DNA from: Escherichia coli
Lineage (GTDB): Bacteria > Pseudomonadota > Gammaproteobacteria > Enterobacterales > Enterobacteriaceae
Reading direction: 5' to 3' (one strand)
DNA: 64,000 bases
Assembly: GCF_965641715.1 (NCBI RefSeq)
Contig: NZ_OZ282453.1
Shown: piece after piece, positions 164 to 24,094 of the stretch
Position numbering within the stretch: position 1 is the stretch's first letter
Layout: the number at the start of each line of letters is the position of its first letter
The notes under the pieces: model-generated
What the model was told of the DNA's origin: nothing
Database searches by the model: none
What the model saw: the letters and a program-made list of their open reading frames with translations, nothing else
Made by a program: the position numbers and the translations under genes

Positions 164-1990
164 CTATTGAAGTAATTCATTACCAAGCCCAAGAAGGCGA
201 TTAAACTCGGTATGCTGCCCATTCATGATCAACAGGGACTGATACGCTTTGTTTTGTTCCGCCGCCTGTTGACGGATCAACGCCACCCGTCGCTCCTCCA
301 GCCCGGCAAGCACATCCTGAATGGATTGCGCTTTACCCTGCATTTGAGTGAGGCGAGACTGTTCAACTGCCAGTTGATTTGTTGCTTCTGCAAGCCCTTC
401 TGTGACAGTTTTTACCGACGTCATGTGGTTAATCATAAAACCGTTATCGGTTGTCCAGCCCGGATTTGCCAGCACATACTGATAGCCAGCAATTTTTTCC
501 TGTAAGGATTTAATCTTACTTTTCTGCTCGTCAATTAACCTGTTCTGCTCCTTCAGTGCCTGTCGCGTCTTTTCCTCATTATCTGACGCTTCAGGAAGCG
601 ACATTGCCGACGTTTTCTGGCGAATTTCGTCGATTGTTGCGGCATACTGGCGTGCAGATTCTCTGGCCTGCTCCTGATTCTGATACATCGTGTACCAGGC
701 CGCAGCCCCCAGCATGACGAGTCCCGGCACACCACCAACCAGCCCCAGCGCGCCACTTAATAAACGACTCCCCACTGACGTAACATTATTCAGCGTTGTC
801 TGTGCCGCTGTTCTGGCCGCAATATTACGGGTAAGTGACGCCTGGGCAGCTGTCAGCTTCGCTTCTGCTGCGGCCTGCCTTTCGGTACCGCGAGCAGCAA
901 CAACCGCCTGTTGCGCACGATAAACCGCCGCACGCGCCCTGGCGGTTGCTATCTGTGTCCCCCGAAGTTGCACTTCAGCAAGAGCCACTTCGTTTCTGGC
1001 TGCAGTAATTAATCCGGCAGTTGCAGATCCAGCAGACGACGCCATATTGCCAAAATATCGGGCTACCCCGACGGCAACCAGAGCACCGGCAGCGGTTGCC
1101 ACGGTGTCAATATTGCCTGCAATACCATTCAGCACACCGGAGAGCGTCTTCGTCACTCCGCTTGCCTCGTTCGCACCACCGACCCAGGCCATAAAGGCGT
1201 TTTCAACTTTGGTTGCAGAGGATGAAACCGTATCAGGCATTGCCGCATATTCATCACGTAATGCCCCAAGCTGACTAATCAGTGCAGGAACAACCTTATC
1301 GGCGGTCAACTTTCCGTTATCCGCCATGGCCTTCAGATCCTTACGGGCAACCCCCATTCCCGCAGCCAGCGCACGAATAACACGATCGCCGTTCTCATTC
1401 ACCGAGTTAAACTCTTCACCGCGCAGCACTCCCTGCGCCAGTGCCTGACTGAACTGCGTGATCACCGAACTGGCTTCTGCTGTACTGGCACCGGATAATT
1501 TCAGGCCCGTGGAGATCGCCTCGGTGACTTTCAGTACCTCCTCAGAACTGTAACCATACTCCCGCATGGAAGCTGCAGAACGGGCAAAAAGGCTGGCGTT
1601 ATCAGAAAACGCCGTCCCCGTTCTCTGGCTGATCGCCATTAATTCACGCTGTGATGCCTGAAAATCATCACTGGACTGTGAGGCCTGCTTCAGACGGGCA
1701 TTTACTGAATTCCACTCATCGGCGAGAGAAATAAGATGACCGGTAGCAAAAGCCCCGGCAAATGCCCCCGCCATATTCAGTGCCGAAGATTTAGCTGTAT
1801 TTATCTGATCCGTCACTTCTGCCAGTGCACGCCGCATTTCACGGGATGCAGCAGCGGACTGCCGGCCCCCGTTCTGCATGGTACGGTAGTAATCCTGCCC
1901 CATACGCGAAGCCCGGGAGATCTCTGACTGGAATGACCGGGAATTTGCCGAGATTTTAATAATCAGTTCACGTAGTGTCGCCACACTCAT
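164..1990 (-). CDS. Tail tape measure protein
   Basis: Long Ala/Gln-rich protein directly downstream of G/T chaperone pair; internal ATG (MSVATLREL) preceded by GGAG; ORF track extends to 2110. Confidence 0.7.
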   Translation of the reverse strand: MSVATLRELIIKISANSRSFQSEISRASRMGQDYYRTMQNGGRQSAAASREMRRALAEVTDQINTAKSSALNMAGAFAGAFATGHLISLADEWNSVNARLKQASQSSDDFQASQRELMAISQRTGTAFSDNASLFARSAASMREYGYSSEEVLKVTEAISTGLKLSGASTAEASSVITQFSQALAQGVLRGEEFNSVNENGDRVIRALAAGMGVARKDLKAMADNGKLTADKVVPALISQLGALRDEYAAMPDTVSSSATKVENAFMAWVGGANEASGVTKTLSGVLNGIAGNIDTVATAAGALVAVGVARYFGNMASSAGSATAGLITAARNEVALAEVQLRGTQIATARARAAVYRAQQAVVAARGTERQAAAEAKLTAAQASLTRNIAARTAAQTTLNNVTSVGSRLLSGALGLVGGVPGLVMLGAAAWYTMYQNQEQARESARQYAATIDEIRQKTSAMSLPEASDNEEKTRQALKEQNRLIDEQKSKIKSLQEKIAGYQYVLANPGWTTDNGFMINHMTSVKTVTEGLAEATNQLAVEQSRLTQMQGKAQSIQDVLAGLEERRVALIRQQAAEQNKAYQSLLIMNGQHTEFNRLLGLGNELLQ

Positions 1991-2031
1991 TCTCCGGACG
2001 AAAAAAAAACCGCCGAAGCGGTTATATTGAC

Positions 2032-2322
2032 TCACTGAGACACTATTAAAAGCGCGTTTTCCAGTCCGGCAAATGGATCTGATACGCCTTCTGTCTGCTC
2101 TTGTCCCCACTGAAGAAGCGCATCATTCAGTGGTACTTTGACACCCTGTGCACCGTAAACCGCAGAAACTATCTGGGCAGCCCGGATATCAGCCCGCTCG
2201 TCACCCAGCGGGCTGAACCTGTCAAATTCTGCCCACATCATGATTTCTGATGCGGACATTTCCCTGCGTAACTCTGACAATGTGCGCCCCATCCTGAGCG
2301 CCAGCATCATCAGAAAACGCAT
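2032..2322 (-). CDS. Tail assembly chaperone, T-frame segment (made as G-T fusion by -1 frameshift)
   Basis: ORF in -1 frame relative to upstream G-like ORF, immediately after slippery site. Confidence 0.6.
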   Translation of the reverse strand: MRFLMMLALRMGRTLSELRREMSASEIMMWAEFDRFSPLGDERADIRAAQIVSAVYGAQGVKVPLNDALLQWGQEQTEGVSDPFAGLENALLIVSQ

Positions 2323-2333
2323 CCCCGGAAGCG

Positions 2334-2720
2334 CTACTTTTTTTTAACCTCGCCGGCATCACTGATCAGTTCCAGAGACTGCCGAAGAAGCCGCGCATGC
2401 ACCGGGCCATACACGGCAATCACCTGTTCACGATCATCCTCTGAAAATACAGGTTGCAGTCCGGTATCACACAGAACATCAATGAACAGTTCAACATCTG
2501 CCTCCAGATTTCGGCGGGCGCGCTCCGCTACGGATAACGGTGTCTCATCATCTTTTGCTTTAACGATCTCCTGCCAGCGCAACCAGGCTTCTGCAGAAGG
2601 TTCCCGTAACACAACCGTTGCTCCCTCCCATTCAGGCACATCAACGGTTTTATGGCGAAACCCCGACATCGTTGCCAGTGCCAGATTACGGATATTTTTA
2701 GTCATCACATCTATCCTCAT
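2334..2720 (-). CDS. Tail assembly chaperone, G-like
   Basis: Position between major tail and tape measure genes; ends ..GEVKKK-stop on A AAA AAG. Confidence 0.6.
   Translation of the reverse strand: MRIDVMTKNIRNLALATMSGFRHKTVDVPEWEGATVVLREPSAEAWLRWQEIVKAKDDETPLSVAERARRNLEADVELFIDVLCDTGLQPVFSEDDREQVIAVYGPVHARLLRQSLELISDAGEVKKK
2337..2345 (-). promoter_or_regulatory. Programmed -1 ribosomal frameshift site (A AAA AAG)
   Basis: mRNA reads gtt aaa aaa aag tag; -1 frame continues VALPGMRFLMM.. into the T ORF. Confidence 0.6.
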
Positions 2721-3424
2721 TAACTGACGGTAACAGTGCAGGAAGTGGAGGTCACCTTGTTAACAGGGCTTGCTGAATCAGAAATCTCGCAGGTATATGC
2801 ACCCGCATCACCGGATACTGCGGATGCCTTACTGAACGTTGCCGCCGTCTGTCCGGAAACAGGAGAACCACCTTTTTTCCAGGCATAAGAATAAGGCGGC
2901 ACACCACCCGCAGCCTCAACCGCCATTTCAAGTTTCGCTCCGGCAGAAATCTGCAGCGTGCTGTTTAAATCGACCTTCACTTTTAGCGGCTCTGTCGTCA
3001 GCACAGGTTTACCTTTCAGACGCAGGGAAAACGTTGCAGCCACAACACCATTGGTTCCTGCAGACCAAGTATGCTGACGCACCTCTGCCATAAAGGTAAA
3101 TCCGTTGCCTGACGGAAAAATAACTTTAAAGCCATACGTGGTGTCATTGTCATAGGCACTACGCAACGCGTTCTGGGCAGCATTGAGGTAAAAGTTGCCT
3201 GACATGGAAATCTCTGACGCGGCACCAAGACCGTTAATATTTTCCTGCTCAACAGAACACAGCGTGGTGACATCAATATCCTGCTTTTGTCCTGCGGTAA
3301 ACTGCACTTCTTTGATTGTACAGCTCAGCCCAAGAAAGCTGGCAGAATCCAGGGTTTCTGCTGTTACCGGTGCAGACGAAATCATAATTTTCGTCAGTTG
3401 CGAACGCTCAAAATTAGAGGACAT
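2720..3424 (-). CDS. Major tail protein with C-terminal Ig-like domain
   Basis: Lambda gpV-like position upstream of G/T; C-terminal Big_2-like segment (..VPPYSYAWKKGG..YTCEISD..). Confidence 0.7.
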   Translation of the reverse strand: MSSNFERSQLTKIMISSAPVTAETLDSASFLGLSCTIKEVQFTAGQKQDIDVTTLCSVEQENINGLGAASEISMSGNFYLNAAQNALRSAYDNDTTYGFKVIFPSGNGFTFMAEVRQHTWSAGTNGVVAATFSLRLKGKPVLTTEPLKVKVDLNSTLQISAGAKLEMAVEAAGGVPPYSYAWKKGGSPVSGQTAATFSKASAVSGDAGAYTCEISDSASPVNKVTSTSCTVTVS

Positions 3425-3485
3425 ACTCGTCTCCTGAAAATAAAAAAGCCCGCCAGCGGCGGGGGGGGTAAAATCATTAACGACC

Positions 3486-3830
3486 TCAGGCTATTACCTG
3501 AAATTCAAGCGTGGCTCTGCTCAGACGGGAATCAGGATCATAACCCTGCGTTTTAGAAATAACGGAGGGTGCCAGTTGCCTTACCGCATCAAGTGCCTGC
3601 TCACGGATATCATCTGCGTCATCAGGTACTGTTGCCCAGACATCGATCTGCACGGTAATTCTGGATTCAGCCTGACCATCAAGCACATCAGACGCAGTGT
3701 CAGAGACCACAGAAAATACCAGCCATGGCGGAGATACCGCAGGCTTTCCCTCCGTCAGCGGGACCACATAAGGATAAACCTGTCCTCCGGCCAGTTTAGA
3801 CAGCAGGGAATACAGTGTGGTCTCTCTCAT
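3486..3830 (-). CDS. Tail terminator/completion-like protein
   Basis: 114 aa ORF between head-tail joining genes and major tail gene. Confidence 0.4.
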   Translation of the reverse strand: MRETTLYSLLSKLAGGQVYPYVVPLTEGKPAVSPPWLVFSVVSDTASDVLDGQAESRITVQIDVWATVPDDADDIREQALDAVRQLAPSVISKTQGYDPDSRLSRATLEFQVIA

Positions 3831-8458: not shown

Positions 8459-9184
8459 TTAAAGCGAGCGGATGCCCACGCTGACCAGATGTTCAGACAG
8501 ATCCGGCTCCGGTTCACCACCATTGACCAGCATCCGGCTCATTGCTGTAAACATCGCAACAGGGCCGTCGATTTTGGCTTCCAGCGTGGATTTATTCGGG
8601 AAGATATTGTCGTTTTTGTCCGGTTTTACCGTAACGTTAGACATCATCCAGTTCATGACCGGATGATTGCTGTGATGGAAACGCCCGGCATAGACCAGTG
8701 ATTCCGTTTCCTTCATGGCCTCTGACAGATTGCGAACCGTCTGCGGAACCTCCACCAGCGGTATCCCTTCTTCAGCCAGTGCCAGGCTGAACTGCATCGC
8801 GCTCCACGGGTCAAATCCCAGCTCCCTGAGGTTTTCACCACCAATCCATTCCAGTAAGTCACTTTTTATCTGAGCATGATCGATAACATCACCATCCGTC
8901 AGAATCAGCTTATCCATCTCCGCCCACTTCCGGTAAAGTTCTGCCTGCTGCCGCGAGCATCGTTCCAGCCGTCCTTCCGGAAGCCAGAATTTAAAATCGG
9001 CATGAACATGCCCGTTATCCGTTCGCCAGAGTTTTGCCGCCGCACAGATATCAATCTTATGAGCAAGGTCAACGCCGACCCACATGGGATACGTTTTCAG
9101 CTCATGTCGTGGGGCAATGTATTCGCACTTCTCCCACTTAATCATGTCCATCCAGGCAGACTCTGCTGTTACCCACACATTCAT
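8459..9184 (-). pseudogene. Terminase large subunit, C-terminal nuclease fragment (gene split by satellite)
   Basis: Aligns to C-terminal half of intact TerL 9715..11376; upstream in-frame sequence runs into the satellite junction. Confidence 0.8.
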
Positions 9185-9202: not shown

Positions 9203-9270
9203 TCAAGTTTTTTAAAATCACCTGTATATCAATCATTTAAAATGAAAAAACAGTCTTTATAAATCATCGA

Positions 9271-9291
9271 GCAATACACAGCGCAATACAC
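9271..9291. repeat. Tandem GCAATACAC motifs, candidate integrase arm-type sites (left arm)
   Basis: gcaatacacagcgcaatacac; near-identical copy at 24095..24115 beside int. Confidence 0.4.
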
Positions 9292-9480
9292 GTATCTGTA
9301 TTGTTTTAATGCTGATACACACCGTTTTTTGATACAGTGATTCGACCTACCATCGCGAAGCATTTTTTATTTCTTGTGTGTAACAATCTGACGAGGTGAG
9401 CACTCAAAGAGATAAGAGGCAGTAGAAATTTCGATCCCCCCCCTGAATGCAATTTTTCGTATATATATATACAAAACAGT

Positions 9481-9632
9481 GCGGGTTATGCGGGTTAGCG
9501 GGTTATCTTCGCGTGCTAAGTATTTTTTACTCTTTAATATCAATACGTTAAAAAACAACGTATCTAAATATCAGCCAGAATGTAACCCGCAAGACATTCA
9601 AAATAACCCGCAAACACCACTCAAATAACCCG
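9481..9632. repeat. Iteron cluster (3 direct GCGGGTTAT + 3 inverted copies around AT-rich spacer)
   Basis: Same 9-mer family as the cluster next to the primase gene. Confidence 0.55.
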
Positions 9633-9714
9633 CAAAAACATCCCTGAAAGTGGGTGCCGATAATACTGAAAATTTATTCCATTAAATGAGCATTGTCCTC
9701 TCTCATCCATTCCG

Positions 9715-11376
9715 TTACACACCATCAAACGTCGCAAGCCGCTCTTTGTGGCTGTCGCTCATATCGAATGCAAATTCCTCATGCTCTGCCTGGAATGTGC
9801 CAAACGCCATCAGCGCCGCAACGCTCGGGTCTATCTTGTTGGATGATTTTTTCTTGTTCGGCTTGATATTGGCGTTCGCGTCACTCTGCATCACAACATT
9901 ACTCATTGACCAGGCCAGCACCGGATCACCACGATGCACAATCACCTTCCGGTTAACAAAAACTTCGAACGATTTCGCCGCCGGACTGAAACGAAGGTAC
10001 GTTTGCGGGAACGGCTCCACCTCAAATCCCGCCCCCTGTAGCTGTGTTCTCAGGTGAGTGGCGTTCCATGTATCGAAGCCCACCAGCCTGATACTGAAAT
10101 TCTCTGCATCCACCATGATGTCATCACGGATACGGTCATAATCAATGCAGTCACCCGGTGTTGTGCGTATCCAGCCCGCCTTTACCCACTGGCGATAAAT
10201 GGCGCGGTTTTTATTGGCGGGGTTCTGTAACTGAAATTCCGGCAGATAGTGACGGGAAACCAGCATAATCTTTTTACCGACCGGAAAGGCATAGCACACG
10301 CTGGAAATATCGCTGGTTGATGATAAGTCCAGCCCCACGTAGCACTCCTGCCCGTATAAATCCGCCTCCGCGAACGTTCCGGCGCACTCCGCCCATGCAC
10401 CGTTACCCATCCACGGCGTAGCCCCCTGACACCAGATATTGAATCGCTTGGTGAGCATTTCCACCCACTGCGACGGAATACCCCGCGCTTTCTGGATGGT
10501 TGAGGCCAGTTTTTCACGATCGACGGAAACATCGATATTGGGATTCGCCTTTATCCACATCGCCGGATCGTCAACCTCGCTTTCATCATCCAGCTCGTAA
10601 ATCAGTACGAACATGGATTCGTTCACCTCTTCACCATCCAGTATCTGGCAGCAATAGTCGTAGTGTTGTTTACAGGCTGAAACAACGTTGCTCCCCGATG
10701 TGGTGATGGCAAATAATAACCCCTCCGGACGCGCCCCCATTCCCAGTTCAAGCGCGGAATAAACCCCGTTGTCAGGGTGCAGGTGATATTCATCTACAAT
10801 GGCAAGACTCGGGTTTGTACCTTCAATGGTTGCCGCTTTTGCTGCCAGTGGCTTTAACAGGCTGTTGGTTTTCGGGTGTATCACCTTGTGTGCCTGAATA
10901 TTTACCCGCTTTCGTAACGGTCGGGATAAAAGGCACATCTGACGCGCATCATCAAACACGATCCGCGCCTGATCACGACTCACGGCGGCGGTGTAAATAT
11001 CCTGCTGCCCGTTTTCCATAACCAGAAACCAGTTAGCCAGGATAGCGGCGACCGTGGATTTGGCATTTTTTCGCGGTACTTCAATGAATGCGCTGGTGTA
11101 TTTGCGCCGTCCGGTGGCCTTAACCTTAAAGCCCAGGATGCACGCAAAGGCGAACTGCTGCCACGGCTCCAGCTCAATGGGGCTACCGCGCATTGCGCCT
11201 TTTACGTGCGGACACACCCTGGAAAAGGCAATAAACTGCTCCACGACCTCCGGATCGAACGTGTAAAGGGGGTTTTCAAGGTCAGAAAAATACCGTTTAA
11301 CGGCCTGTTTCAGTCGTTTACAGGCCGTAATTTTGCCGTTTTTTACGCCTTCTGCGTACTCATGCCAGGCGGTCAA
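9715..11376 (-). CDS. Terminase large subunit (satellite, intact)
   Basis: 553 aa with ATPase motifs (VPRKNAKST, AIVDEYH) and C-terminal nuclease region. Confidence 0.85.
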   Translation of the reverse strand: MTAWHEYAEGVKNGKITACKRLKQAVKRYFSDLENPLYTFDPEVVEQFIAFSRVCPHVKGAMRGSPIELEPWQQFAFACILGFKVKATGRRKYTSAFIEVPRKNAKSTVAAILANWFLVMENGQQDIYTAAVSRDQARIVFDDARQMCLLSRPLRKRVNIQAHKVIHPKTNSLLKPLAAKAATIEGTNPSLAIVDEYHLHPDNGVYSALELGMGARPEGLLFAITTSGSNVVSACKQHYDYCCQILDGEEVNESMFVLIYELDDESEVDDPAMWIKANPNIDVSVDREKLASTIQKARGIPSQWVEMLTKRFNIWCQGATPWMGNGAWAECAGTFAEADLYGQECYVGLDLSSTSDISSVCYAFPVGKKIMLVSRHYLPEFQLQNPANKNRAIYRQWVKAGWIRTTPGDCIDYDRIRDDIMVDAENFSIRLVGFDTWNATHLRTQLQGAGFEVEPFPQTYLRFSPAAKSFEVFVNRKVIVHRGDPVLAWSMSNVVMQSDANANIKPNKKKSSNKIDPSVAALMAFGTFQAEHEEFAFDMSDSHKERLATFDGV

Positions 11377-11716
11377 GCTCGTCCTCTTCCTCTGTTTCCG
11401 GTGGATTTCTGCGGCGACTTACCGGGTCAAAACCCAGCAAAGAAGCCATTTTGATCATTATTCTTTCAGCGTCAGCCTTTGCGCTCAGGGCGGGGTTTCT
11501 GCTCTCGCTGCCCTGACTGTTAACAATGCTGAACCCGCGCGTGGCAAGGTCTTCGACGGCTTTGCGGTATATGGAGTAGTTAACGCAATACAGCTCCAGA
11601 TTGCTCCAGTCGGCGGGGGTAAGGTCTTCCCGTCCGGAAAGCTGGCGCGATTTTTCCTTCCACTGCCTGACCGCGATTTCATCCAGGTAAGCGGGGGCTT
11701 TTGGTGGTCTTGCCAT
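11360..11716 (-). CDS. Terminase small subunit (satellite)
   Basis: Starts MARPPKAPAYLDE..; overlaps terL start; ORF track extends to 11857. Confidence 0.7.
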   Translation of the reverse strand: MARPPKAPAYLDEIAVRQWKEKSRQLSGREDLTPADWSNLELYCVNYSIYRKAVEDLATRGFSIVNSQGSESRNPALSAKADAERIMIKMASLLGFDPVSRRRNPPETEEEDELDRLA

Positions 11717-12004
11717 GTTCTTTTTTCGCCCAATTATTTTCAAAAAAATTCCCGTGCACAAAAATTTGAGGAGGCGGTCGGTGTCCGGCAGGGACGGTTT
11801 TGTCCTGAAAACCTCCCCCCCCCCCTCTGACGGCCTCACCAGCGATTGCGAAAACATTCCATGACCTCGCGGTCACGGTCGGTTAATCGCTTCGCTGTGG
11901 TGCGTTCTGTGCGCCCTGTCCTGTTGGCTTTGTGCCCTGTCTCCTGTGTCTTCCATAAGTCACGCTGCCTTATCAGTCCACGTATCAGCCTGTTTTGCTC
12001 CTGT

Positions 12005-12445
12005 TCAGTCATCATCGCCATACATCCAGTCGTTACGGTGTGCCGCCCGTTCTTCCTGCTCGCGATACATACCCGCCTTACGGTTCGCTTTCGTGGCTGG
12101 ATCTTCCCGTGTTGTCTTACGGTTATGGCACGTCTGGCACAATGCCTGGTGGTTCCACTCAGGCCAGAAGAGAACATCACCGCCGCCATTGATGGGAATG
12201 ATGTGATCCACCACAAGAGCTGGCGTATAAATCCCCTTAGCCAGACAACGCACGCATAACGGATTTTTGCTCAGGTACAGGGCGCGGTATTTGTCCCACT
12301 GTCGGGAATACCCGCGCGCGCGGCGGTGTCCCCGTCTGGCATCCTCTGCACGCCATGCAGCCCGCCTGTGATCTTCGCACTTGCCGGACTTCACGCGCTT
12401 ATTACAGCCCGGCTCAGTGCATCGCCTTAATGGTTGCCACGGCAT
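12005..12445 (-). CDS. HNH endonuclease (packaging-associated)
   Basis: Cys-rich N-terminus and HNH motif (..DHIIPINGGG..H..C..CH). Confidence 0.8.
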   Translation of the reverse strand: MPWQPLRRCTEPGCNKRVKSGKCEDHRRAAWRAEDARRGHRRARGYSRQWDKYRALYLSKNPLCVRCLAKGIYTPALVVDHIIPINGGGDVLFWPEWNHQALCQTCHNRKTTREDPATKANRKAGMYREQEERAAHRNDWMYGDDD

Positions 12446-12744
12446 CAGTACACCCCTACATCACGATAAACCGACCAGAGCGCAGAAATAGCCATAGGCA
12501 GTTCAGACTGCTCCACAGGTGAAACCGCTTCCCTGTTCTCGTACAGGAAAGCGATGTACATCAGGCAACCAACACGTATTGCCGGGGTAAATTCCAGCCC
12601 GTCTTCAAAACGTTTCCCGATATGCTTCTGGCAGGCTTCCAGCGCCGCATCGGTATACATTTTCAGAAGTTCGCCCTCACCTGAGAAGTCATCAAGGCGA
12701 AGATGTGCCCTGACTTCATCAGGTGTAATTTTTTCTTCACTCAT
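12445..12744 (-). CDS. gp6-like head-tail connector (satellite)
   Basis: MSEEKITPDEVRAHLRLDD.. N-terminus; internal ATG, ORF track start 12825. Confidence 0.55.
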   Translation of the reverse strand: MSEEKITPDEVRAHLRLDDFSGEGELLKMYTDAALEACQKHIGKRFEDGLEFTPAIRVGCLMYIAFLYENREAVSPVEQSELPMAISALWSVYRDVGVY

Positions 12745-13951
12745 CTTTTTCACCTTTAATTTCCACCGTCTGCTTCCATGCCTGGCTGAACTCGTCACCA
12801 CCTTCACGCGGCGGCATCCCCTCACGTTCGCGGGCTTCGTTCGGATTCATGATCCCGTTCTTAATCCCTTTCTCATACGTGGCGTAACGCTCGGTTGGAG
12901 TAGCGCGCAGTAAATCGGCTGAATCAAACTCAACCAGATAACGGGTACCAGGTATGGGAGAAGCCACCAGCAAAGCGGCCTTAATTTGCTGTTCGAAGTT
13001 CGCCAGCCATGGGCGCATTGTCATGGTCAGAAACGCGCGGCTTGCCTCACTGAAATTGCTGTAGGTGCTGTTGCTGTATTCCTGAAGAAAAATCGGCGAC
13101 ACGTTGAACATCCGGGCGATGTCTTCAATGGAGAAGCGACGGGAGGCCAGCCATTCTGCATCCTGGTTACTCATCCCCAGTTGCTTGTAATCCATACCCC
13201 CTTCAAGGATTGGCGTTTTTCCGGCATTTTTCGCCCCCTTGTAGCGTTCCAGGGCGTCTAATGCCTGTTTACCTTTCACGCCGTCCAGCCATTCGCCTGA
13301 CGTGATAATCCCTGCCGCCATCATGCCATCTTTCATAATGCTGGCTCCGTGACGCTGTTGAGCAAGGCCAAGCCCCAGCGCCTCACGGCAAATCGTGACA
13401 GGGGAGCGCCCCAGAAAGCCATCATCCGAGGCATAGCGGAGATGCAGAACTTCTTCCTGCAAATACGTGCGCACCGTTCCTGTATAGGGTTCGGTGATGG
13501 TATAGCGGTATTTGTGTGCGCCAGTGCGTTCCGGTACAACACACCCCGGCGCATAAGGATGAAGTGATTTTGGCTGACCGTCCCGCCCCCACTCAATAAC
13601 CGCATAGGCGTTACCGTTCAGCAGGCAGTGACGCATCATTGTGCGTTTAAACTGGTAAGGTGTCTGGCACGAATTAGGCTGCTCATTCAGCAGAATATCG
13701 ACCGGGTGACTGTCCAGCCATTCCCGCGCCTCCCTGCCCTTGTCATTGCGTACCAGATACAGATAACACGGCATCGTGGCCACCGCCTCAGCGATGACAG
13801 AAACCGCGTTCATCACAGCAGGCAATGATTCAGCCGTCCCGGCAGAAACATATTCTCCGGATCCGGTATTCGGTACGCCGGACAGCGCCAGAAAATCATC
13901 AATGGACAGGTTACGCAGATCGCTTTTTTTACGACTAAAAGGCCACCACAT
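12737..13951 (-). CDS. Portal protein (satellite, HK97 family)
   Basis: Portal-like sequence; ATG at 13951 abuts protease stop; ORF track start 14041. Confidence 0.8.
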   Translation of the reverse strand: MWWPFSRKKSDLRNLSIDDFLALSGVPNTGSGEYVSAGTAESLPAVMNAVSVIAEAVATMPCYLYLVRNDKGREAREWLDSHPVDILLNEQPNSCQTPYQFKRTMMRHCLLNGNAYAVIEWGRDGQPKSLHPYAPGCVVPERTGAHKYRYTITEPYTGTVRTYLQEEVLHLRYASDDGFLGRSPVTICREALGLGLAQQRHGASIMKDGMMAAGIITSGEWLDGVKGKQALDALERYKGAKNAGKTPILEGGMDYKQLGMSNQDAEWLASRRFSIEDIARMFNVSPIFLQEYSNSTYSNFSEASRAFLTMTMRPWLANFEQQIKAALLVASPIPGTRYLVEFDSADLLRATPTERYATYEKGIKNGIMNPNEAREREGMPPREGGDEFSQAWKQTVEIKGEKDE

Positions 13952-13952
13952 A

Positions 13953-14513
13953 TCACAACCCCGCCAGTTCAGCCCAGCGATGACGATTATTTCCTGTCGG
14001 GCGTAATTCAGGGTGCTGTGCAAACAACGAACGGTGGGCAATCTCCACGCCGGATTCGGGATAAGCAGGCATCGACGTTATCGTGATTTCACGGAGTTCT
14101 GCGGCGGTAACAGTGCGCAGATACGGTTTTTGCGCGATATTCCACTCTTCGCATAATGCGCGAAAGCCAAAGCTCATTCCTGTAATGTCGCCACGCTCCA
14201 CCAGCGTAAGCACATCTTTTCCAAGCTGGGTATCAGGCGGTGTCAGTTCAAAACGTAGCCCGGTGTTGTCCTCAGTCAGTACCAGTGTTCCGGATTTGGT
14301 GCGCCCCAGCAGTCGGGTATAGTCATGCTCATACAGGCAGCGCACATCATTACCCGCCGCCAGATAGTCAGCAAAAGCCCCCGGCGTGAACTGTTCGCGG
14401 AATTCGTCCCAGATAATTTCTGAAAGGCTGTTCCAGCGAACGGCATACCCCACCAGCTTTTTATTGCTGGCGGTCAGTTCAGATGTGCGGATTTCAAAAT
14501 CGGTGTTTTTCAT
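13953..14513 (-). CDS. Prohead protease (satellite)
   Basis: 186 aa, ..GYAVRWNS.. region matching HK97 protease pattern. Confidence 0.8.
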   Translation of the reverse strand: MKNTDFEIRTSELTASNKKLVGYAVRWNSLSEIIWDEFREQFTPGAFADYLAAGNDVRCLYEHDYTRLLGRTKSGTLVLTEDNTGLRFELTPPDTQLGKDVLTLVERGDITGMSFGFRALCEEWNIAQKPYLRTVTAAELREITITSMPAYPESGVEIAHRSLFAQHPELRPTGNNRHRWAELAGL

Positions 14514-14567
14514 CGGTGTACTCCATAAAGCTGAAAAAGGAGGCCGCAGCCTCCTCCTTACTCATGA

Positions 14568-15737
14568 CTAGCCAGCTTTCATTTCCAGAATTTTGATGGC
14601 GTTTGAATCCACCACACCACCGCCCAGATATTTATCCGTGTGGACCTTGTAGAATCCGGGCTCAGTAATGTTGTCCGGTCGGGTGCGAATCCCTGTTACA
14701 TGATCAACGATGAAATAACCACGACTGAAATCGCCAACCGCTAGCGGTGCTTTTCCTGCGCCGATGTCCGGCATGGACTCCAGGCAGAAAACAGGACGAC
14801 CAAGCAACATATCCGGCGCACCTTCTTTAAGGCTGTCGCGCCAGATATAATCGCCATTCTCATTTTTCAGCTTCTGTAGTGTCCCTGCCGTGCCCGAGTT
14901 CATCACCCAGACGGCATTTTTGCGGTATTTCGCTTTCAGCTTGTAGAGAATGTCGATCAGTTCGTCCGCTGTAATGGCGGTTCCACTTGCCGCTACCACT
15001 TTTTCAATGGTGCCAAAAGCGCGGGTTTTGTCACTGGTCGCCGCACGGGTGTAAGCCATGAAGCCTTTCGGCTTGCCGTTACCGTCGCCATTAACAAAAT
15101 CATCCTCTTCGGTGCTGGCGAACGTGTCGGCAATTTCGGAGGATAACCAGCCCAGAATATCCACCTCTGAAAAATCCAGGATTTCCTGCGTGGTTTTCGG
15201 GTAGGCGTAGATCGGATTCAGCTTGATGGTTACACGTTCAATTTTCGGGGTGTTGGTTTCACTACGTGCGCAGCCTTCTGTGCCTCGTCCTACAGTTGCG
15301 CCGCCAGTGGAAACCAGTTTCTGAAACTCATTTGATTTTGCGGTCTTCACGGTCGCGATCACGCGCATAACACTGTCATCCTGTAGCTGGCGCATGACTT
15401 CGCGATCAAGCTCAGGAATTACGGTATATCCGCCATCCCTGCCGCTGTCAGTGCTGGTGGACAGTGATCGCACATCTCCGGTTACGATGTAGTTACGCAA
15501 TTCATCAGATGATAATTTCTGGATGCCCGTTCCTGGCTTGCTGCGTTCTTCATCAGCCACAGACTCGAGGCGGTAAATTTCTGTGTCGAGGGAATCGGCT
15601 TTTGCACGCAGTTCATCAAACTGTTTGCCCTCGTCATCGTTCAGGCTGCGGTTTTCACTGTCGGCTTTTTCCAGCAGGGATCGCATCTGGTTTTTCAGGG
15701 CGGTTTTTTGCTGGCGGAGTTCGATTAATTTCTTCAT
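14568..15737 (-). CDS. Major capsid protein (satellite, HK97 fold)
   Basis: 389 aa, coiled N-terminal segment, homologous architecture to 5176..6381. Confidence 0.85.
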   Translation of the reverse strand: MKKLIELRQQKTALKNQMRSLLEKADSENRSLNDDEGKQFDELRAKADSLDTEIYRLESVADEERSKPGTGIQKLSSDELRNYIVTGDVRSLSTSTDSGRDGGYTVIPELDREVMRQLQDDSVMRVIATVKTAKSNEFQKLVSTGGATVGRGTEGCARSETNTPKIERVTIKLNPIYAYPKTTQEILDFSEVDILGWLSSEIADTFASTEEDDFVNGDGNGKPKGFMAYTRAATSDKTRAFGTIEKVVAASGTAITADELIDILYKLKAKYRKNAVWVMNSGTAGTLQKLKNENGDYIWRDSLKEGAPDMLLGRPVFCLESMPDIGAGKAPLAVGDFSRGYFIVDHVTGIRTRPDNITEPGFYKVHTDKYLGGGVVDSNAIKILEMKAG

Positions 15738-15974
15738 GAAGGTTTTCTCGTATTGGTTAAGATTCAGGACGTGAAACCAACACGGAGGGAGCGCCGCCCG
15801 ACACTCTCGGCATCTCGCAGATCAACCCGGCATCGCGCAGGGGGTCAGGCGGCATTGTGGCGGCTCACGTCTGAGTGCCACACGCCAACATATACATAAA
15901 AATCAGTATGTAAACATCAGCCAGAATCACCGAACAACCTGGAACAACCACGAACAAATAATTTACAAAACCTG

Positions 15975-16000
15975 AAAAAAAGACCTGGAGAAAATCCAGG
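15975..16000 (-). terminator. Intrinsic terminator upstream of satellite capsid operon
   Basis: Hairpin cctgga/tccagg followed by T-run on minus strand, directly after ORF 16012..16260. Confidence 0.5.
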
Positions 16001-16011
16001 CCTTTATCGCT

Positions 16012-16260
16012 TTATTGTTTCACTGGATCCCGCATTCTGCGTCTTATTTTCCACAGATATTCGATCATCGCTTCCACCTGCTCACGATTGGTTGCGAAAA
16101 TTTCCCCGGTCAGTGAGCTGCGCAGAAAATCATGATGATCCACAACAAACAACGCATCGGAAGAAAGCAGACGGCGATATTTTTTTGCTGTCGTGGTTTC
16201 CAGATCATCAAAACCATGAAACTTTTTATGTTGCTGGACTTCTTCAAATGTCACTGGCAT
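16012..16260 (-). CDS. Hypothetical protein
   Basis: 82 aa ORF, 4-nt overlap with upstream ProQ-like gene. Confidence 0.4.
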   Translation of the reverse strand: MPVTFEEVQQHKKFHGFDDLETTTAKKYRRLLSSDALFVVDHHDFLRSSLTGEIFATNREQVEAMIEYLWKIRRRMRDPVKQ

Positions 16261-16793
16261 GTATCCCCCTTTGCCGCCCGGCGCTGGCGCTTGTGCTTCT
16301 CATTCAGCGCCATCAGCCGCGTTTCTGCCTCCTGCTGTTCCTGTGGTGTCACTTCCCCACATGGCTGGCCTTTCAGGTCGTATCGTACCCCACCAGCAAC
16401 CAGGGCGCGGTAATAGCGCGGAGACTGCGCATAAGATGCCAGCGTCGCACGTAATGCCCCCGGCCCGAATGCCAGCCCCCTGACGGCGAGATCCTGCATC
16501 AGGTCGTCGAATATCCCCACCTTAAGCGGCTTCGGTGCTTCCCTGTTGAATAAGTCAGGCCACATCTCAGTGAGGCGGTTAACGCGCCTGCGGTTTTTGC
16601 GCTGGCGTTTGGTCATATGCCGCCACGGTGTCACCCCTGTGGGCTGCCCTTTGCGGCTCTGCTGTGCGTTCTGATTGCCGGGTATCACTTTATGCGCCGA
16701 TGTGGTTTTATCCCGCTCTTGCGCCGCCTGCGTCGTTTTCTGCGGCGTGCCGTAAATGCCTTTCGGTTTTCGGTTAATGGTCAGCTTTGTCAT
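16251..16793 (-). CDS. ProQ/FinO-domain RNA-binding protein with basic N-terminal extension
   Basis: ..PLKVGIFDDL..RATLASYAQSPRYYRAL..RYDLKGQPCGEV.. parallels ProQ N-terminal domain. Confidence 0.6.
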   Translation of the reverse strand: MTKLTINRKPKGIYGTPQKTTQAAQERDKTTSAHKVIPGNQNAQQSRKGQPTGVTPWRHMTKRQRKNRRRVNRLTEMWPDLFNREAPKPLKVGIFDDLMQDLAVRGLAFGPGALRATLASYAQSPRYYRALVAGGVRYDLKGQPCGEVTPQEQQEAETRLMALNEKHKRQRRAAKGDTCQ

Positions 16794-16957
16794 GCCTTCC
16801 CCTGTAATTACTCTGTTCGCTGTTGTGAATTAAAACGGTATGTTATCCCCGTACAGGTCATCGTGCTGGCCTGTCTGTTGTTTTGCCCTGTTCAGTGCGT
16901 CAGTGGCCTGCCCCTGTTGGCCTTTTTTGCCGCCCGGTCGCGCCGTTCTCGCACTGA

Positions 16958-17254
16958 TTACGCTGTCTGCGATGACCTGCCAGCCCTGCCGCGTTTCGCC
17001 GTTCTGCCCTGTCCACTGCTTACCTGCATGTTACCCGCCACGCTCACCAGTTCGCCTTTGCGGTGTTTTGCCAGTGCGTCGGCCTGTCTGCCAAACGCCA
17101 GGACGGATAACCACATCGTCGCCGTTCCGTCATCTGCCTGGCTGCATGGCAGGGGAACCGCCATACTCGCCATCGCCATTTGTGTTCCCTTGCTGGTGGT
17201 CTTTAACTGCGGGTCAGCCACCAGCCGCCCGTAAGCCGCTATCTGTGCTGTCAT
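16958..17254 (-). CDS. SSB-like OB-fold protein (tentative)
   Basis: 98 aa, ..GRLVADPQLKTT..TATMWLSVLAFGRQA..KGELVSVAG.. resembles short phage SSBs. Confidence 0.35.
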   Translation of the reverse strand: MTAQIAAYGRLVADPQLKTTSKGTQMAMASMAVPLPCSQADDGTATMWLSVLAFGRQADALAKHRKGELVSVAGNMQVSSGQGRTAKRGRAGRSSQTA

Positions 17255-17318
17255 GCTGTCTGCTCTCCGGTTTTAACGTTGATGGTTACGCTTGTTTACA
17301 CCCTTACGGTGAAATTCT

Positions 17319-17441
17319 GCGGGTTATAATCGCACTTTTGCGGGTTATAACTGCCGTTTTGCGGGTTACGTGCGGGTTATTGATTTCCTTTTTATTCATA
17401 CAGTTAATGCACTTATATACATGATAACCCGCATAACCCGC
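17319..17441. repeat. Iteron cluster, candidate satellite origin (4 direct GCGGGTTAT + 2 inverted, AT-rich centre)
   Basis: Immediately downstream of primase/helicase gene. Confidence 0.6.
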
Positions 17442-17464
17442 AACTTTTCACCTCACACAGGGGG

Positions 17465-19588
17465 TTAATCTTCTGCCTCAGGCTGGAACATCAGCACGTA
17501 AAAAACATGCTGCTTCCCCCCAATTTTGCCGAGCGCCTTTTTCTTGTAACGGCGATCGTTACCCGCTTCCAGCATTCCGGCAGCACTCAACGCGCGGGCA
17601 AAGTGAGACGGATTAAATCCCTGTGCTATCTCACCCTCAAATACATGCGGGAACGTGTAAAAACGGAACTCGTCATCTTCGTTTCTGATACTCCCCTTTC
17701 TGTATCCGGCAAGTTCTTTAATCGATAAATCACGCTCGTCGGTATTGGGCCACGGAAGGTATCTGCTGAATCCGAACGACGCTAAAAAAGCTTCTGCCTG
17801 TTCAACCATCTGTTTAAATTCCCTGTTACCCGTGCCGAACTCCTTCACCCAGGCATTAAAATTATGCTGTATGGCATCGCGGCATTCCTGCTCATCCCAG
17901 CCAGTAACATGACCTGAAAGCACAAGCGCGGCCTCCAGTATGGCAAATCGCTCCCCCACACGGTGAACCTGTTCGCCGTAGCTCTCCGGTATCAGGTTGC
18001 GCCACCGCTCACGGCATGTCCTTACCGTGTCCTTTGCCTCCTGCTGGTGTTCTGCCAGCCATTTAACCCACTCACGACCCGCCGCCCCGTGATTTTCTGT
18101 CCAGGCATCCTTTAACGCGTCTGCGTGCGCCTTTCCGGTGCTGTATTCGTGAAATTGCGTGGCTTTTTCCATCGGAACGTTAAGCAGGCGGACAAGCTGC
18201 CCCGCTTTGACTTTTATCCCCTCCGTTTTGAGGAATGTCTCAACGTCCATTTCTCCGGTGCTGATTGCCACCGTGCGCCAGTGTTTGATCTCCCTGTTGC
18301 CGCCGTCCTTCGCCCCCTGTAATTTCCCCGAACCGTTAAACAGCGTATAGGCTGACGTGGACACCTCCCGCGCGTTTCCGGCCTGGCCTATTTCATCCAG
18401 GGGTAAAAGCCCGTCATTGTGTGCCTCTGCTTCGTTGGCGATACCTAACGCTGTGCCGTACCAGGTCAGCCGCTGCGCGTCCGGCTCTCCCCATAAACTT
18501 GATGCGATGTTCTGTGTGGTGGTTTTCCCTGCCGATGACTGTTCGAAAAGATGTACCCCGAAGCCGTCAGCGCCCACCAGCCCGATTAATGGTGCGGATA
18601 ACGATACCGCCACACCCAGCATCATGGACGGATTACCACCAGCCAGCCGCGCAACGGTATCGCGCCAGCCCTCCGCCGTTCCTGCCACGGAATAGCCATT
18701 AACAGCAGCCGTTTTTCCGGTAAACAGGACTGGCTTTTCGCAATCACCAATGACCGAACCGTCCGGCATGATGTACGCGCCAAAATGCCAGCCCGTTGTT
18801 GTGCTTAACTGCCATTCCTCATGGCTTCCGCTTAACTGCATCCAGTCAGCCAGGATAGCCCTGTATTTACCGTTGGTTGTTACGTTCAGTCCGTGGTCTT
18901 TCAGCAACCGCCAGCCGTCACGGTCGCCAATGCCACCGCACGGAACCGCCATTGTGATGACTTCATGGTTTGCTAATTTTTTCCAGCGCATCACGCGGTA
19001 ATGCTCTTTACCGATTGTCCCCGTTCCCAGTAGTTCAAGCGGGGAACATAACCACGTCTCAGGCCGGATAATTTCGCCTGACTGCTTATCCACTTTTGGC
19101 GTTACCCAGAAAACACCATCGGCGCGACTTTCAACGCGGGGCTTTAATTCATCATCGCCCTGGATTTCTGTGATTTTTTTCTTTAAGGGCAACACCAGAC
19201 TTTCCCCGCGCTCGTATTCGTCTTTGAGGCGAGGCAACTGGTCGGATAAATCCGCCGGGCTGATGTCAGTTATCCCCGCGTATTCGTATACGGTCTTCAC
19301 GCCAGCCACAGCCAGCAACGTGACGATCTGTGTAAGGCTACGTTCAGTGATGTGCCCTGCGCGGTAAACACGCACACACTGACGGCTATCATCAATAATT
19401 TGATAACCGGTAATATCTTTCAGGTGTTCATCTGACAGAACGACAGGCGGCACATTGTCGGCGGCAATATGCTTACCTGCCCATTCCTGCCACTCTTTCG
19501 CATGGCTCCACGCATCACTACCCGCAAAGATGATAACCTCCGTCATTTTGTCGGCTGGCTGGTGCTTTAAGTTTGGTGCGCGCTTCAT
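17465..19588 (-). CDS. Primase/helicase-type replication protein
   Basis: 707 aa with Walker A (SSAGKTT), P4-alpha/PICI pri-rep-like position next to iterons. Confidence 0.65.
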   Translation of the reverse strand: MKRAPNLKHQPADKMTEVIIFAGSDAWSHAKEWQEWAGKHIAADNVPPVVLSDEHLKDITGYQIIDDSRQCVRVYRAGHITERSLTQIVTLLAVAGVKTVYEYAGITDISPADLSDQLPRLKDEYERGESLVLPLKKKITEIQGDDELKPRVESRADGVFWVTPKVDKQSGEIIRPETWLCSPLELLGTGTIGKEHYRVMRWKKLANHEVITMAVPCGGIGDRDGWRLLKDHGLNVTTNGKYRAILADWMQLSGSHEEWQLSTTTGWHFGAYIMPDGSVIGDCEKPVLFTGKTAAVNGYSVAGTAEGWRDTVARLAGGNPSMMLGVAVSLSAPLIGLVGADGFGVHLFEQSSAGKTTTQNIASSLWGEPDAQRLTWYGTALGIANEAEAHNDGLLPLDEIGQAGNAREVSTSAYTLFNGSGKLQGAKDGGNREIKHWRTVAISTGEMDVETFLKTEGIKVKAGQLVRLLNVPMEKATQFHEYSTGKAHADALKDAWTENHGAAGREWVKWLAEHQQEAKDTVRTCRERWRNLIPESYGEQVHRVGERFAILEAALVLSGHVTGWDEQECRDAIQHNFNAWVKEFGTGNREFKQMVEQAEAFLASFGFSRYLPWPNTDERDLSIKELAGYRKGSIRNEDDEFRFYTFPHVFEGEIAQGFNPSHFARALSAAGMLEAGNDRRYKKKALGKIGGKQHVFYVLMFQPEAED

Positions 19589-19899
19589 TTTGCCTTTCCC
19601 CGTTCACGAATAATTTCACGTACTGCCTTAATGCGTTCCATTCCTGTAACGCGCATGATTCTGTCGATGTCGCTTAATTCTGCTGGTGGTGCTTTACTTA
19701 CCAAGGTGAACTCCCTGTCAAAGCGCATATGTGACGACACGCAGGGATGCGCATAACCTTCGCGGATATAGGTCACACGAAAATCATCGACGGTTTTGAT
19801 CGTTATCGTGCTGCCGTATTTATCCTGGAAAATATCGCCGGGGCGGATTTCAGGCCGAGCGGGGCCGCTGGCAGTAAAGCCAGAATTTTTCTTTTTCAT
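19585..19899 (-). CDS. Hypothetical protein
   Basis: 104 aa, 4-nt overlap with primase gene. Confidence 0.4.
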   Translation of the reverse strand: MKKKNSGFTASGPARPEIRPGDIFQDKYGSTITIKTVDDFRVTYIREGYAHPCVSSHMRFDREFTLVSKAPPAELSDIDRIMRVTGMERIKAVREIIRERGKAK

Positions 19900-19904
19900 G
19901 TTTT

Positions 19905-20153
19905 TTACTCCAGAGGCAGCTTTTTAGCGGCGAGCTCAATATCAGATGTCAGAGAAACCTGTGTATTTGCCAGGTCTAACAACAAAGAAATAAGAATTTC
20001 TTCTCTGCTATCGGATTTATCGGTGCTAAGGCTGTTCATCCACATATTGACGACTTCCCTGATTTTTTTCGCAGAGTGCAGGGCTTCAAATGCCAGGTCT
20101 TCAATATCATGTTTATTTCGCATAATCGCCCCCGCCATTTTCACAATCAGCAA
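19905..20153 (-). CDS. Hypothetical protein
   Basis: 82 aa ORF in early leftward operon. Confidence 0.3.
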   Translation of the reverse strand: MLIVKMAGAIMRNKHDIEDLAFEALHSAKKIREVVNMWMNSLSTDKSDSREEILISLLLDLANTQVSLTSDIELAAKKLPLE

Positions 20154-20358
20154 TCAGGATGGCTTTTGCCTCATTCAGCGCCATATCAGCACTAAATTGC
20201 ATAACAGCCAGTGAGTGAGGAACGAAAGCCCCGGCATATTCTGTTTCGCTGGTGGCGTGCTTATGCGCCTTGTCTGCGATAACAGAAATATCAATCAGCG
20301 CGTGCATCAGCGTTTTGATGGCTTCGGCGGCTGCGTCCGGACGGGTGTTATTGCACAT
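20113..20358 (-). CDS. Hypothetical protein
   Basis: 81 aa ORF, first gene of leftward operon. Confidence 0.3.
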   Translation of the reverse strand: MCNNTRPDAAAEAIKTLMHALIDISVIADKAHKHATSETEYAGAFVPHSLAVMQFSADMALNEAKAILIADCENGGGDYAK

Positions 20359-20651
20359 GGCGCACCTCCTGACGAATACGGGCAGCGAATACCATCACGC
20401 AGCCAGCCGGGGATTGCTGGCGTGCTTCCTGTTCGCTAGTGGCCTCAATGGTAATCACACGCGGTTGTGCCGTGCTCAGGGCGATAAAACGCCAGATGTA
20501 TTTATTCAGGTTGTGCGAGTCCCGCCCTTGCGGGTGTGTGGTATGATTTAACATAGCTACCTCGATAATCTTGCTATCGTTGGTGGTTAGAAGCCCGGTT
20601 AGTGTTAGCGCACTGCCGGGTTTCGTCGTTTGTATTTCAATAAAACCATTG

Positions 20652-20729
20652 GTGTGTTTCATGTTATTTTGGAGTGAAACACACGTCAAGCCTTTTTTGT
20701 ATTTCTTTTTTGTGTATACTGAAACACAC
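20652..20729. promoter_or_regulatory. Divergent promoter/operator region with three TGAAACACAC half-sites
   Basis: Perfect 10-bp inverted repeat GTGTGTTTCA..TGAAACACAC plus third copy overlapping a TATACT -10. Confidence 0.45.
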
Positions 20730-20750
20730 CAAATTTGAGGAGTTTCAGTT

Positions 20751-21056
20751 ATGGCGACTACCAACAAAAACGCTAAATCACAATTGACCACCGTCAGAGT
20801 CCCCCACGATGTTATGGAGGGCATGGAATCCGTAAAACTGGACGGCGAAAGCAACGCCGGATTCATAGTAACCGCCATGCGCGGTGAGATCGCCCGCCGC
20901 CAGGCAGAAGGAAGCGGAGAAAATCCCCTGGTTTCTTCGCTCGATGCACTGGCGCAGGTGGAAAAAATTGGAGTCAAGGCTGCCGAGGAGATCGGGCAAC
21001 TCGTCACCGTCGCGCGTGAAGAACTCCAGCGACGCAAGGTCAAAGAGCAGGAATAG
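20751..21056 (+). CDS. Ribbon-helix-helix-like regulator (tentative)
   Basis: GAGGAG RBS; N-terminal TTVRVPHDVMEGMESV..AGFIVTAMRGEI pattern. Confidence 0.45.
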   Translation: MATTNKNAKSQLTTVRVPHDVMEGMESVKLDGESNAGFIVTAMRGEIARRQAEGSGENPLVSSLDALAQVEKIGVKAAEEIGQLVTVAREELQRRKVKEQE

Positions 21057-21113
21057 CCACTATCAGCGCCATAGTTTGAGGAACGCAGGCGCATTGCTTT
21101 ACAGGACAGCACC

Positions 21114-21293
21114 ATGAGCGACACAGAATCAACCAAAACACCATCACCAACTCGTAAGAGACGACGCAAAAATATAGCGCATGAACATGAATCAGAAAGA
21201 TTCGCACCTTGTTCGTTTGCTCTTGAGAAATTCCTTAAAGAGCACAGGAAAAAGCTCTCGTTGCAAACCTTGGAACGAACCAAATCTGACTGA
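21114..21293 (+). CDS. Small basic protein (59 aa)
   Basis: ORF below track cutoff, followed by two intrinsic terminators. Confidence 0.25.
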   Translation: MSDTESTKTPSPTRKRRRKNIAHEHESERFAPCSFALEKFLKEHRKKLSLQTLERTKSD

Positions 21294-21359
21294 TCACATT
21301 GCCCACCAGCCGCAAATGTGGCATTGTTGGTGATGCTTTTGTTTTCCCTTGTTCCCACT

Positions 21360-21388
21360 GGCGACCCTTTTGCGGTCGCCTTTGTTTT
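21360..21388 (+). terminator. Intrinsic terminator
   Basis: ggcgaccc tttt gcggtcgcc followed by T-rich run. Confidence 0.45.
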
Positions 21389-21483
21389 GCCTGTTATCCG
21401 GCAATAGTGGCGCTTCGTCACCTGTCTGATATAATTCCACAGCTTATATTCATTTTTTGCGCAGTAGGTTAATTGTTCGCAAG

Positions 21484-24074: not shown

Positions 24075-24094
24075 GTGATTTATAACCCGTTTTT

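Follow-up and report, generated by a model that had tools for sequence, protein, structure and literature searches.

Between the tail assembly chaperone frame T and the tape-measure protein (TMP) gene of an Escherichia coli prophage, the coding strand carries a hairpin followed by nine T. The question raised by this locus is what a terminator-like element is doing in the middle of a tail operon. An initial annotation, made on the 64,000-nt stretch of contig NZ_OZ282453.1 that is called the window here, read the element as a strong and unexpected intrinsic terminator, which might act as an attenuator or a processing site, or be tolerated through antitermination. Comparison with relatives suggests that it is probably a cargo-less copy of a moron-slot terminator, located at the classical HK97-like slot and tolerated through antitermination.

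Anatomy of the hairpin and its place in the tail module

The window holds a lambdoid, HK97-like prophage of E. coli. Its tail module shares 96-99% identity with those of Evi, a cultivated temperate coliphage, and phi467, an Stx2f phage, and was found in 901 of 5426 complete E. coli genomes; E. coli 042 also has it. As shown in Table 1, the tail genes lie on the minus strand. G ends GTT AAA AAA AAG TAG and the -1 frame continues to the TGA of T. In three related loci (L150, L178 and L193) the A-run at the G/T slippery site is one A shorter and the frames are fused otherwise, for example into a 165-aa ORF; this could be a homopolymer sequencing error or genuine variation of the slippery site. 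Between gp17, the tail completion gene, and the major tail gene is a gap of 60 nt that holds a second terminator-like hairpin, and the V-G-T block is flanked by the two hairpins (3463..3449 and 2023..2008).

Table 1. Features of the window referred to in the text (positions counted from the first letter of the window).
Feature	Position	Strand	Basis
TMP gene, HK97-type, stop at 166..164	164..1984	-	Pfam TMP_3 + Phage_HK97_TLTM
Probable TMP start codon GTG	1982..1984	-	spacing, relatives, PGAP annotation of PEC422
GGAG Shine-Dalgarno of TMP gene	1992..1995	-	sequence; kept in relatives
T9 (U9) tract, overlaps last stem positions	2001..2009	-	sequence
Terminator hairpin AACCGC-TTCG-GCGGTT, 4 G-C + 2 A-U pairs, UUCG loop	2008..2023	-	sequence, folding, conservation
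TGA stop of T frame (end of G-T frameshift product)	2032..2034	-	T frame matches Pfam Phage_tail_T
Tail assembly chaperone G	2334..2720	-	Pfam PF06222 (Phage_TAC_1), E = 2.8e-58
Slippery heptamer A AAA AAG, -1 frameshift G to T	2337..2343	-	read from sequence
Major tail protein with Ig domain	2720..3424	-	Pfam
Second terminator-like hairpin CCCGCC-GCT-GGCGGG, then C + T6	3449..3463	-	consensus scan, folding
Tail completion gp17	3486..3830	-	Pfam
tR'-like hairpin AAACCCGCCGAAATGCGGGTTTTTT, just downstream of Q	29158..29135	-	consensus match only
PR'-like promoter TTGCAA-17-TATATT	29238..29210	-	consensus match only
Q antiterminator gene, head of late operon	29222..29917	-	Pfam PF06323, E = 1.8e-91
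sok antitoxin RNA	31927..32101	-	Rfam, 111.7 bits
DicF RNA	38647..38698	+	Rfam

The stem arms of the hairpin are 2023..2018 and 2013..2008 on the minus strand with the TTCG loop between them. The letters read a(2022)ccgcttcggcggt(2009), an extra A:T pair is available at 2023/2008, and the first one or two T of the T-run are able to close the stem; the longer stretch reads ...tctcagTGAgtcaatatAACCGCTTCGGCGGTTTTTTTTTcgtccGGAGaatgagtGTGgcgaca... The hairpin begins 8 nt past the T-frame stop and the T-run ends 5 nt ahead of the GGAG, so that both the sequence and its position before the tape-measure ribosome-binding site were as first described. The placement between the T stop and the TMP start held for the stop codon; ATG 1990, which had been given as the start, is probably to be replaced by GTG 1984. 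This codon is preferred because the GGAG is 7 nt from it and 1 nt from the in-frame ATG (1990..1988), because in relatives the codon at the 1984 position is ATG or GTG and the upstream ATG 1990 is not conserved, being absent from some of them (aacgagaGTG), and because PGAP places the start at the equivalent codon in the near-identical strain PEC422. The TMP start annotation is thus likely corrected to GTG 1984.

The sequence offers what is expected of an intrinsic terminator, namely a G+C-rich stem-loop with an adjoining U-tract, on the gene strand and just past a stop codon. As far as sequence can tell, the element has the anatomy, orientation and place of a Rho-independent terminator, and unmodified polymerase would be expected to terminate at it. 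The isolated hairpin folds with -8.5 kcal/mol (z = -3.3), and 1 of 200 shuffles was as stable. The terminator consensus scan picks it up (6 pairs, 4 G-C, loop 4), and this permissive scan yields 23 sites over 12 kb where shuffled sequence yields 12.7 +/- 3.4. The T9 tract is the sole run of at least nine T or A in 64 kb, where 2.2 +/- 2.3 are expected by chance. The 71-nt region around the hairpin shows no unusual structure (folding z = -0.74). Since the T-run is within chance, the scan is loose and the neighbourhood is unstructured, the case for a real element rests on comparison with relatives.

The short distance from the U-tract to the GGAG raises the idea that the hairpin works on the RNA after read-through, either as a 3' exonuclease barrier for the V-G-T message or as a leader that tunes ribosome loading on TMP. 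Ribosomes that stay in frame leave at the end of G, about 350 nt before the TMP start, and the T stop is reached by frameshifted ones alone, so that translation of TMP must begin de novo. In the folded ensemble of the read-through RNA the hairpin is predicted at p ~0.85. We consider this role very unlikely. A search of 1850-2450 against Rfam 15, at gathering and permissive thresholds, gave no family at gathering score (best hits 14-19 bits, cut-offs 50-58). In the folding model, deletion of the hairpin raises the predicted accessibility of the Shine-Dalgarno sequence, and a hairpin that serves stability needs no U-tract. Pairing of CUUCGG in the hairpin with CCGGAG at the ribosome-binding site is the minimum-energy fold of the 71-nt region. 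It was rejected on the z score given above and because it is a minority structure in an ensemble dominated by the terminator hairpin; it is also impossible with the other hairpin types found at this position.

Cargo genes at the T/TMP junction

The match between E. coli ST648 and the window breaks off inside T, and in ST648 a gene for a 113-aa 'zinc ribbon domain-containing protein' precedes TMP. The identical hairpin (aaaaaCCGCTTCGGCGGtttttttt) follows the stop of this gene, just ahead of the TMP ribosome-binding site. An exact scan for the 21-mer pattern of the hairpin retrieved at least 120 IMG/VR contigs, about 45 of them with the window arrangement (T stop, 8 nt, hairpin) and about 40 with the zinc-ribbon gene, then the hairpin, then TMP; in the remaining ones the 21-mer lies ahead of other tail genes. 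The order of T, zinc-ribbon gene, hairpin and TMP recurs in FSL SP-016, an isolated phage of Salmonella. Across the zinc-ribbon loci (ST648, IMG/VR prophages and FSL SP-016) the 21-25 nt of hairpin and T-run are identical to the window, whereas about 400 nt of low-GC cargo lie between the T stop and the hairpin, compared with 8 nt in the window. In four of these loci (L038, L051, L071 and L076) not only the hairpin but also the ribosome-binding site and TMP sequence downstream of it agree exactly with the window. This indicates that the cargo-bearing and cargo-less alleles are homologous by descent at the hairpin.

The zinc-ribbon cargo protein has 111-115 aa, with N-terminal membrane segments, a CxxC...CxxC motif and a C-terminal YLEEAR(R/Q)K, and matches Pfam Zn_ribbon_3. 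The GC content of its gene is 0.36-0.42, compared with about 0.50-0.55 in the flanks. In relatives with cargo, the hairpin starts 5-10 nt past the stop of the cargo gene. The scan for a promoter of the zinc-ribbon cargo in these relatives gave consensus matches at chance level (2, with 2.2 expected). Hexamers TTGACT/TTTATT picked by eye did not pass the criteria of the promoter scan.

The first moron to be described was HK97 gene 15, located between the chaperone and TMP genes, and morons carry their own promoter and terminator (PMC3594210). Relatives of the window have such an extra gene between the conserved genes; the cargo ORFs have a GC content of 0.32-0.45, against 0.52-0.59 for G and T. 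In the window no gene lies between T and TMP and there is no room for a promoter, while the terminator has the same sequence as that of the zinc-ribbon cargo gene. The hairpin follows the T stop after 8 nt, and the slot in the window is therefore empty rather than occupied by a moron.

The HK97 record (NC_002167) gives the same order, with a Gp15 'moron product' (8203-8391) directly past the G-T frameshift gene, a 'terminator, putative' (8398-8422) and TMP (8435). The N-terminus of this TMP, gp16 (MATLRELIIKISANS...), is 91% identical to that of the window TMP. The HK97 element lies in the same slot and orientation, and its hairpin + T8 ends about 12 nt before the homologous TMP. It differs in the stem (ACCCGC-TATCAA-GCGGGT) and in its cargo, a 62-aa YebO-like gp15, where the window has the terminator without a cargo gene or promoter. 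HK97 gp15 acts to exclude superinfecting phages. The slot is said to have been known since the HK97 genome paper, and the putative terminator of the gene 15 moron reportedly goes back to Juhala et al. in 2000. Contrary to what had been supposed, a terminator is thus not unexpected here, because the slot is the classical moron slot. By sequence and position the window copy joins the known class of moron-slot terminators and is ordinary for HK97-like tail operons; what looked like an oddity in mid-operon is explained as the footprint of cargo-gene traffic at a known slot.

The K-I intergenic region of HK97 (L125, 5561..5825) contains unannotated frames, one starting MYTVGFGWIFVGIFIGLILWFF... and another ending ...NYLEEARKKAGL*. 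The latter ending is the C-terminal motif of the zinc-ribbon cargo, and an annotated putative terminator follows. Judged from these motifs, the frames may be a decayed relative of the zinc-ribbon family at a second slot. HK022 carries its moron gp20 at the K-I position.

The 21-mer was also found in unrelated phages, where it precedes TMP_3-type TMP genes of other lineages, I-like and K-like (JAB + NlpC/P60) genes, and genes for tail fibre, baseplate J, spike and DNA circularisation. Some of these copies follow long structural ORFs and have no obvious cargo, so not every such hairpin is cargo-derived. Common descent of all copies in the more than 120 viral contigs was rejected as unsafe, for a short stereotyped design can arise repeatedly. 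Our claims of homology are therefore confined to copies with flanking sequence in common.

Conservation of the slot and of the cargo-less allele

Because the 21-mer scan selects for the hairpin, loci were also collected by homology to the TMP N-terminus alone, in two samples of 80 loci each, the second centred on a more distant TMP. A hairpin with a T-run lies directly before the TMP ribosome-binding site in 80/80 loci of the first sample and in 76/80 of the second (156/160 in both). The window hairpin accounts for 64 loci of the first sample (57 cargo-less, 7 after a zinc-ribbon gene). The other 16 have five further hairpin types, each after a low-GC ORF of about 113-123 aa that is mostly lipoprotein-like. 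The exceptions in the second sample are three TerL-TMP deletion fusions (L231 twice and L243 once) and L280, in which the cargo gene is reversed and its own hairpin abuts T. Going by their sequences, these four exceptions fit a cargo-linked origin of the hairpin. In the three fusion contigs a terL-like ORF runs up to 13 nt before the TMP start and the head and proximal tail genes are missing, an apparent large deletion that fused terL to the TMP gene.

About 16 distinct stems are found at the slot (HK97 counted), with predicted energies of -8.5 to -17.6 kcal/mol and 6 to 9 U. Among these the window stem is the weakest, and the word 'strong' in the initial annotation was an overstatement. Nearly all of the hairpins follow diverse low-GC ORFs for lipoproteins or small membrane proteins. 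Variants within one hairpin type fall in the loops (TGTGT/TATGT, TAA/TTA, TTAA/TTGA) and none in the stems. The presence of a hairpin after diverse cargo in 156/160 loci indicates that the T/TMP junction is a cargo hot spot and that the terminator is its constant feature. The junction is thereby marked as a hot spot for lysogen-expressed membrane proteins and lipoproteins, which aids the annotation of prophage accessory genes. In the IMG/VR loci L127-L287 the slot holds at least ten unrelated small cargo families in the GC range of 0.32-0.45, among them lipoprotein families (e.g. ...ISACKP...DPDSAKFNS...YKLFC, ...ATQTLAPLEP...), small membrane proteins and the one reversed gene of L280.

Cargo-less relatives were gathered by their flanks and not by the hairpin, which gave 62 distinct contexts. 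The hairpin is identical in 62/62 of them. The T-run has 8 T in 45 contexts, 7 in 14 and 9 in 3, and 9 in the window. A flank-anchored pattern scan of 116 contigs found no cargo-less relative without the hairpin. These data exclude the reading of the element as a chance match to a loose terminator consensus, to which we give practically no probability in spite of the scan figures and the chance expectation for the T-run given above. All flank-ascertained relatives have the hairpin without a change, it is homologous to the terminator of a cargo gene in sister genomes, and different hairpins fill the same position in the TMP-ascertained loci.

A 701-nt query was matched in one place over 80% or more of its length in about 870 of the 5426 complete E. 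coli genomes, with the hairpin itself read in few of them; on this sequence evidence the orphan form is the common allele. Its origin may be loss of the cargo with the terminator kept, or the terminator may have been there first and the cargo may have come in ahead of it. A comparison of cargo-bearing and cargo-less alleles revealed no deletion junction or microhomology, as the alleles already diverge in the last ~45 nt of T. A second cargo-less slot, apparently independent of the first, is seen in L283, where the spacer is AT-rich and 85 nt long and a terminator is present.

In the 57 TMP-ascertained cargo-less loci, 0/14 hairpin columns are variable where about 2.5 are expected (P ~0.06), and 31/150 upstream and 23/150 downstream columns vary (15-21%). 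On this weak signal the hairpin could be kept for a role of its own. It may instead be a pure relic, a neutral scar of moron traffic which has no present effect and persists through the youth of the lineage. The cargo-less lineage is narrow, its flanking DNA being 96-99% identical, the statistical case for constraint is weak and the length of the T-run drifts between 7, 8 and 9; the slot in L283 also agrees with a relic, since it looks like an independent case that kept spacer and terminator. We regard a pure relic as possible but doubtful. The hairpin upstream of the major tail gene, itself conserved in relatives, has several stem-breaking variants in the same contigs in which the T/TMP hairpin is invariant. 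Moreover, a hairpin with U9 is still expected to act on unmodified polymerase, selected or not.

Probable read-through of the late operon and state of the prophage

The late region of the window resembles the PR'-tR'-Q arrangement of lambda, with a Q-family gene, a promoter-like site, a short hairpin and all late genes downstream on one strand. Unlike that of lambda, the late operon of the window is split by a satellite-like insertion of 15 kb. Terminators along the late operons of lambdoid phages are read through by polymerase that Q has modified. Our own scan of the coding strand from Q to TMP found about ten clean sites of a hairpin with a T-run, to which the consensus scan adds the one between gp17 and the major tail gene. 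With about ten such hairpins in the late operon, a terminator inside the operon is the rule and not the exception.

Two tRNA genes (28862-29012, minus strand) lie downstream of Q. The tRNA sets at this place differ among close relatives, with two in PEC422 and four in OkiPb01701.

The cultivated temperate coliphage Evi forms plaques (PMC6969025). In its genome the same hairpin stands without cargo ahead of TMP and every distal tail gene. Since Evi is viable with this hairpin, read-through must occur in a working phage. By analogy with known lambdoid late operons, we infer that Q-modified polymerase reads through the window hairpin. Of the three options that the initial annotation offered, tolerance through antitermination thus fits best; the Q gene and the hairpins of the late operon are there, and read-through itself is the inferred part.

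Under the cargo-less terminator reading, the events at the slot would be as follows. In sister phages the hairpin would end an inserted low-GC cargo gene, most often that of a ~112-aa zinc-ribbon membrane protein. In the window the cargo gene and any promoter would have gone or never arrived, leaving the terminator alone 8 nt past the T stop. Unmodified polymerase, coming from the cargo promoter in sister phages or from spurious starts, would stop at the hairpin, so that in a lysogen ordinary polymerase would be kept from entering the tape-measure and distal tail genes. During lytic growth the Q-modified, terminator-resistant polymerase would pass the window hairpin like the other hairpins of the operon.

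Lambdoid late operons with terminators inside were already in the literature, which again speaks against an unexpected element. In the phage L / P22 late operon, Rho-independent terminators are likewise predicted in a single-promoter, antitermination-dependent operon. The authors called intra-operon terminators common, wrote that 'their roles are not known', and proposed that they damp downstream mRNA or block transcription that is not subject to antitermination (PMC8022706). The phage L terminator differs in place, as it lies at the end of the procapsid module instead of the T/TMP junction, and that paper does not connect it with cargo genes (PMC8022706). For the role of such terminators, which was left unknown there, the common cargo-less allele described here would offer a clean natural test.

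Both proposed roles (PMC8022706) would make the window hairpin a selected valve inside the operon, which lowers TMP and the distal tail proteins relative to the major tail protein and chaperones by partial termination, or blocks leaky expression in the lysogen. The location of the V-G-T block between two terminator-like hairpins, the invariance of the hairpin in 62 contexts with varying flanks and the terminator ahead of TMP in nearly all TMP-ascertained loci agree with this. We nevertheless consider such a valve unlikely. A tail operon can do without such a hairpin, as HK022 shows, where none lies between T and an unrelated TMP. The sequence of the hairpin changes with the cargo, as if the terminator travels with the cargo rather than with TMP. 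Q-modified polymerase is in general terminator-resistant, and the conservation signal (0/14 variable columns) is weak. The tail operon of lambda, too, works to our knowledge without a hairpin between T and TMP. In phage phiX174 internal attenuating terminators lie between structural genes, and this phage has no antiterminator; by that analogy, terminators between structural genes could grade transcript abundance by protein stoichiometry.

As the same 21-mer also stands before I, K, tail-fibre and baseplate genes, the junction might serve as an exchange patch. The terminator and the ribosome-binding site before TMP would then form a selected, cargo-independent docking point that silences the distal tail genes in lysogens or damps them in lytic growth and offers a ready-made stop and exchange patch for cargo. 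We hold this to be quite improbable. Under the reading of a cargo-less moron-slot terminator, the slot suggests a natural, terminator-equipped site for the insertion of cargo into HK97-like phages.

The prophage in the window appears defective. Codon 607 of its TMP gene is a premature stop (166..164), and relatives, which encode about 1075 aa, have Gln at this codon; the relatives compared are 99.9% and 96.6% identical at the DNA level without gaps. Its terL is split into an N-terminal part (24080..25273) and a C-terminal part (8459..9184). The TMP stop and the split terL together suggest a defective prophage. With the late operon broken in this way, the hairpin may never be transcribed in this strain, and functional conclusions therefore rest on intact relatives.

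The insert in terL is a ~15.0-kb element (9203..24245) bordered by imperfect 14-bp junction repeats at 9189-9202 and 24246-24259 (TTTGTGAGAATATT and TTTGTGAAAAAATT). This att repeat was found by BLAST against an uninterrupted relative, having been missed by a repeat search with a 14-nt minimum and a 12-nt exact seed. The insert carries genes for an integrase, HTH regulators, a DUF927 primase/helicase, SSB and ProQ/FinO, and further for a major capsid protein, protease, portal, connector, HNH, TerS and TerL, with no tail genes among them. All of them run in the same direction as the late operon of the helper-like prophage. By its predicted genes the insert matches a capsid-forming satellite of the PICI type. 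The same insert-in-terL arrangement was found in about 22 complete E. coli genomes.

A hairpin much like the studied one, AACCCGCTTCGGCGGGTT with a T-rich tail, lies at 31712..31687 (minus strand) near sok. Such a hairpin, sok and DicF (Table 1) are typical accessory features of lambdoid prophages.
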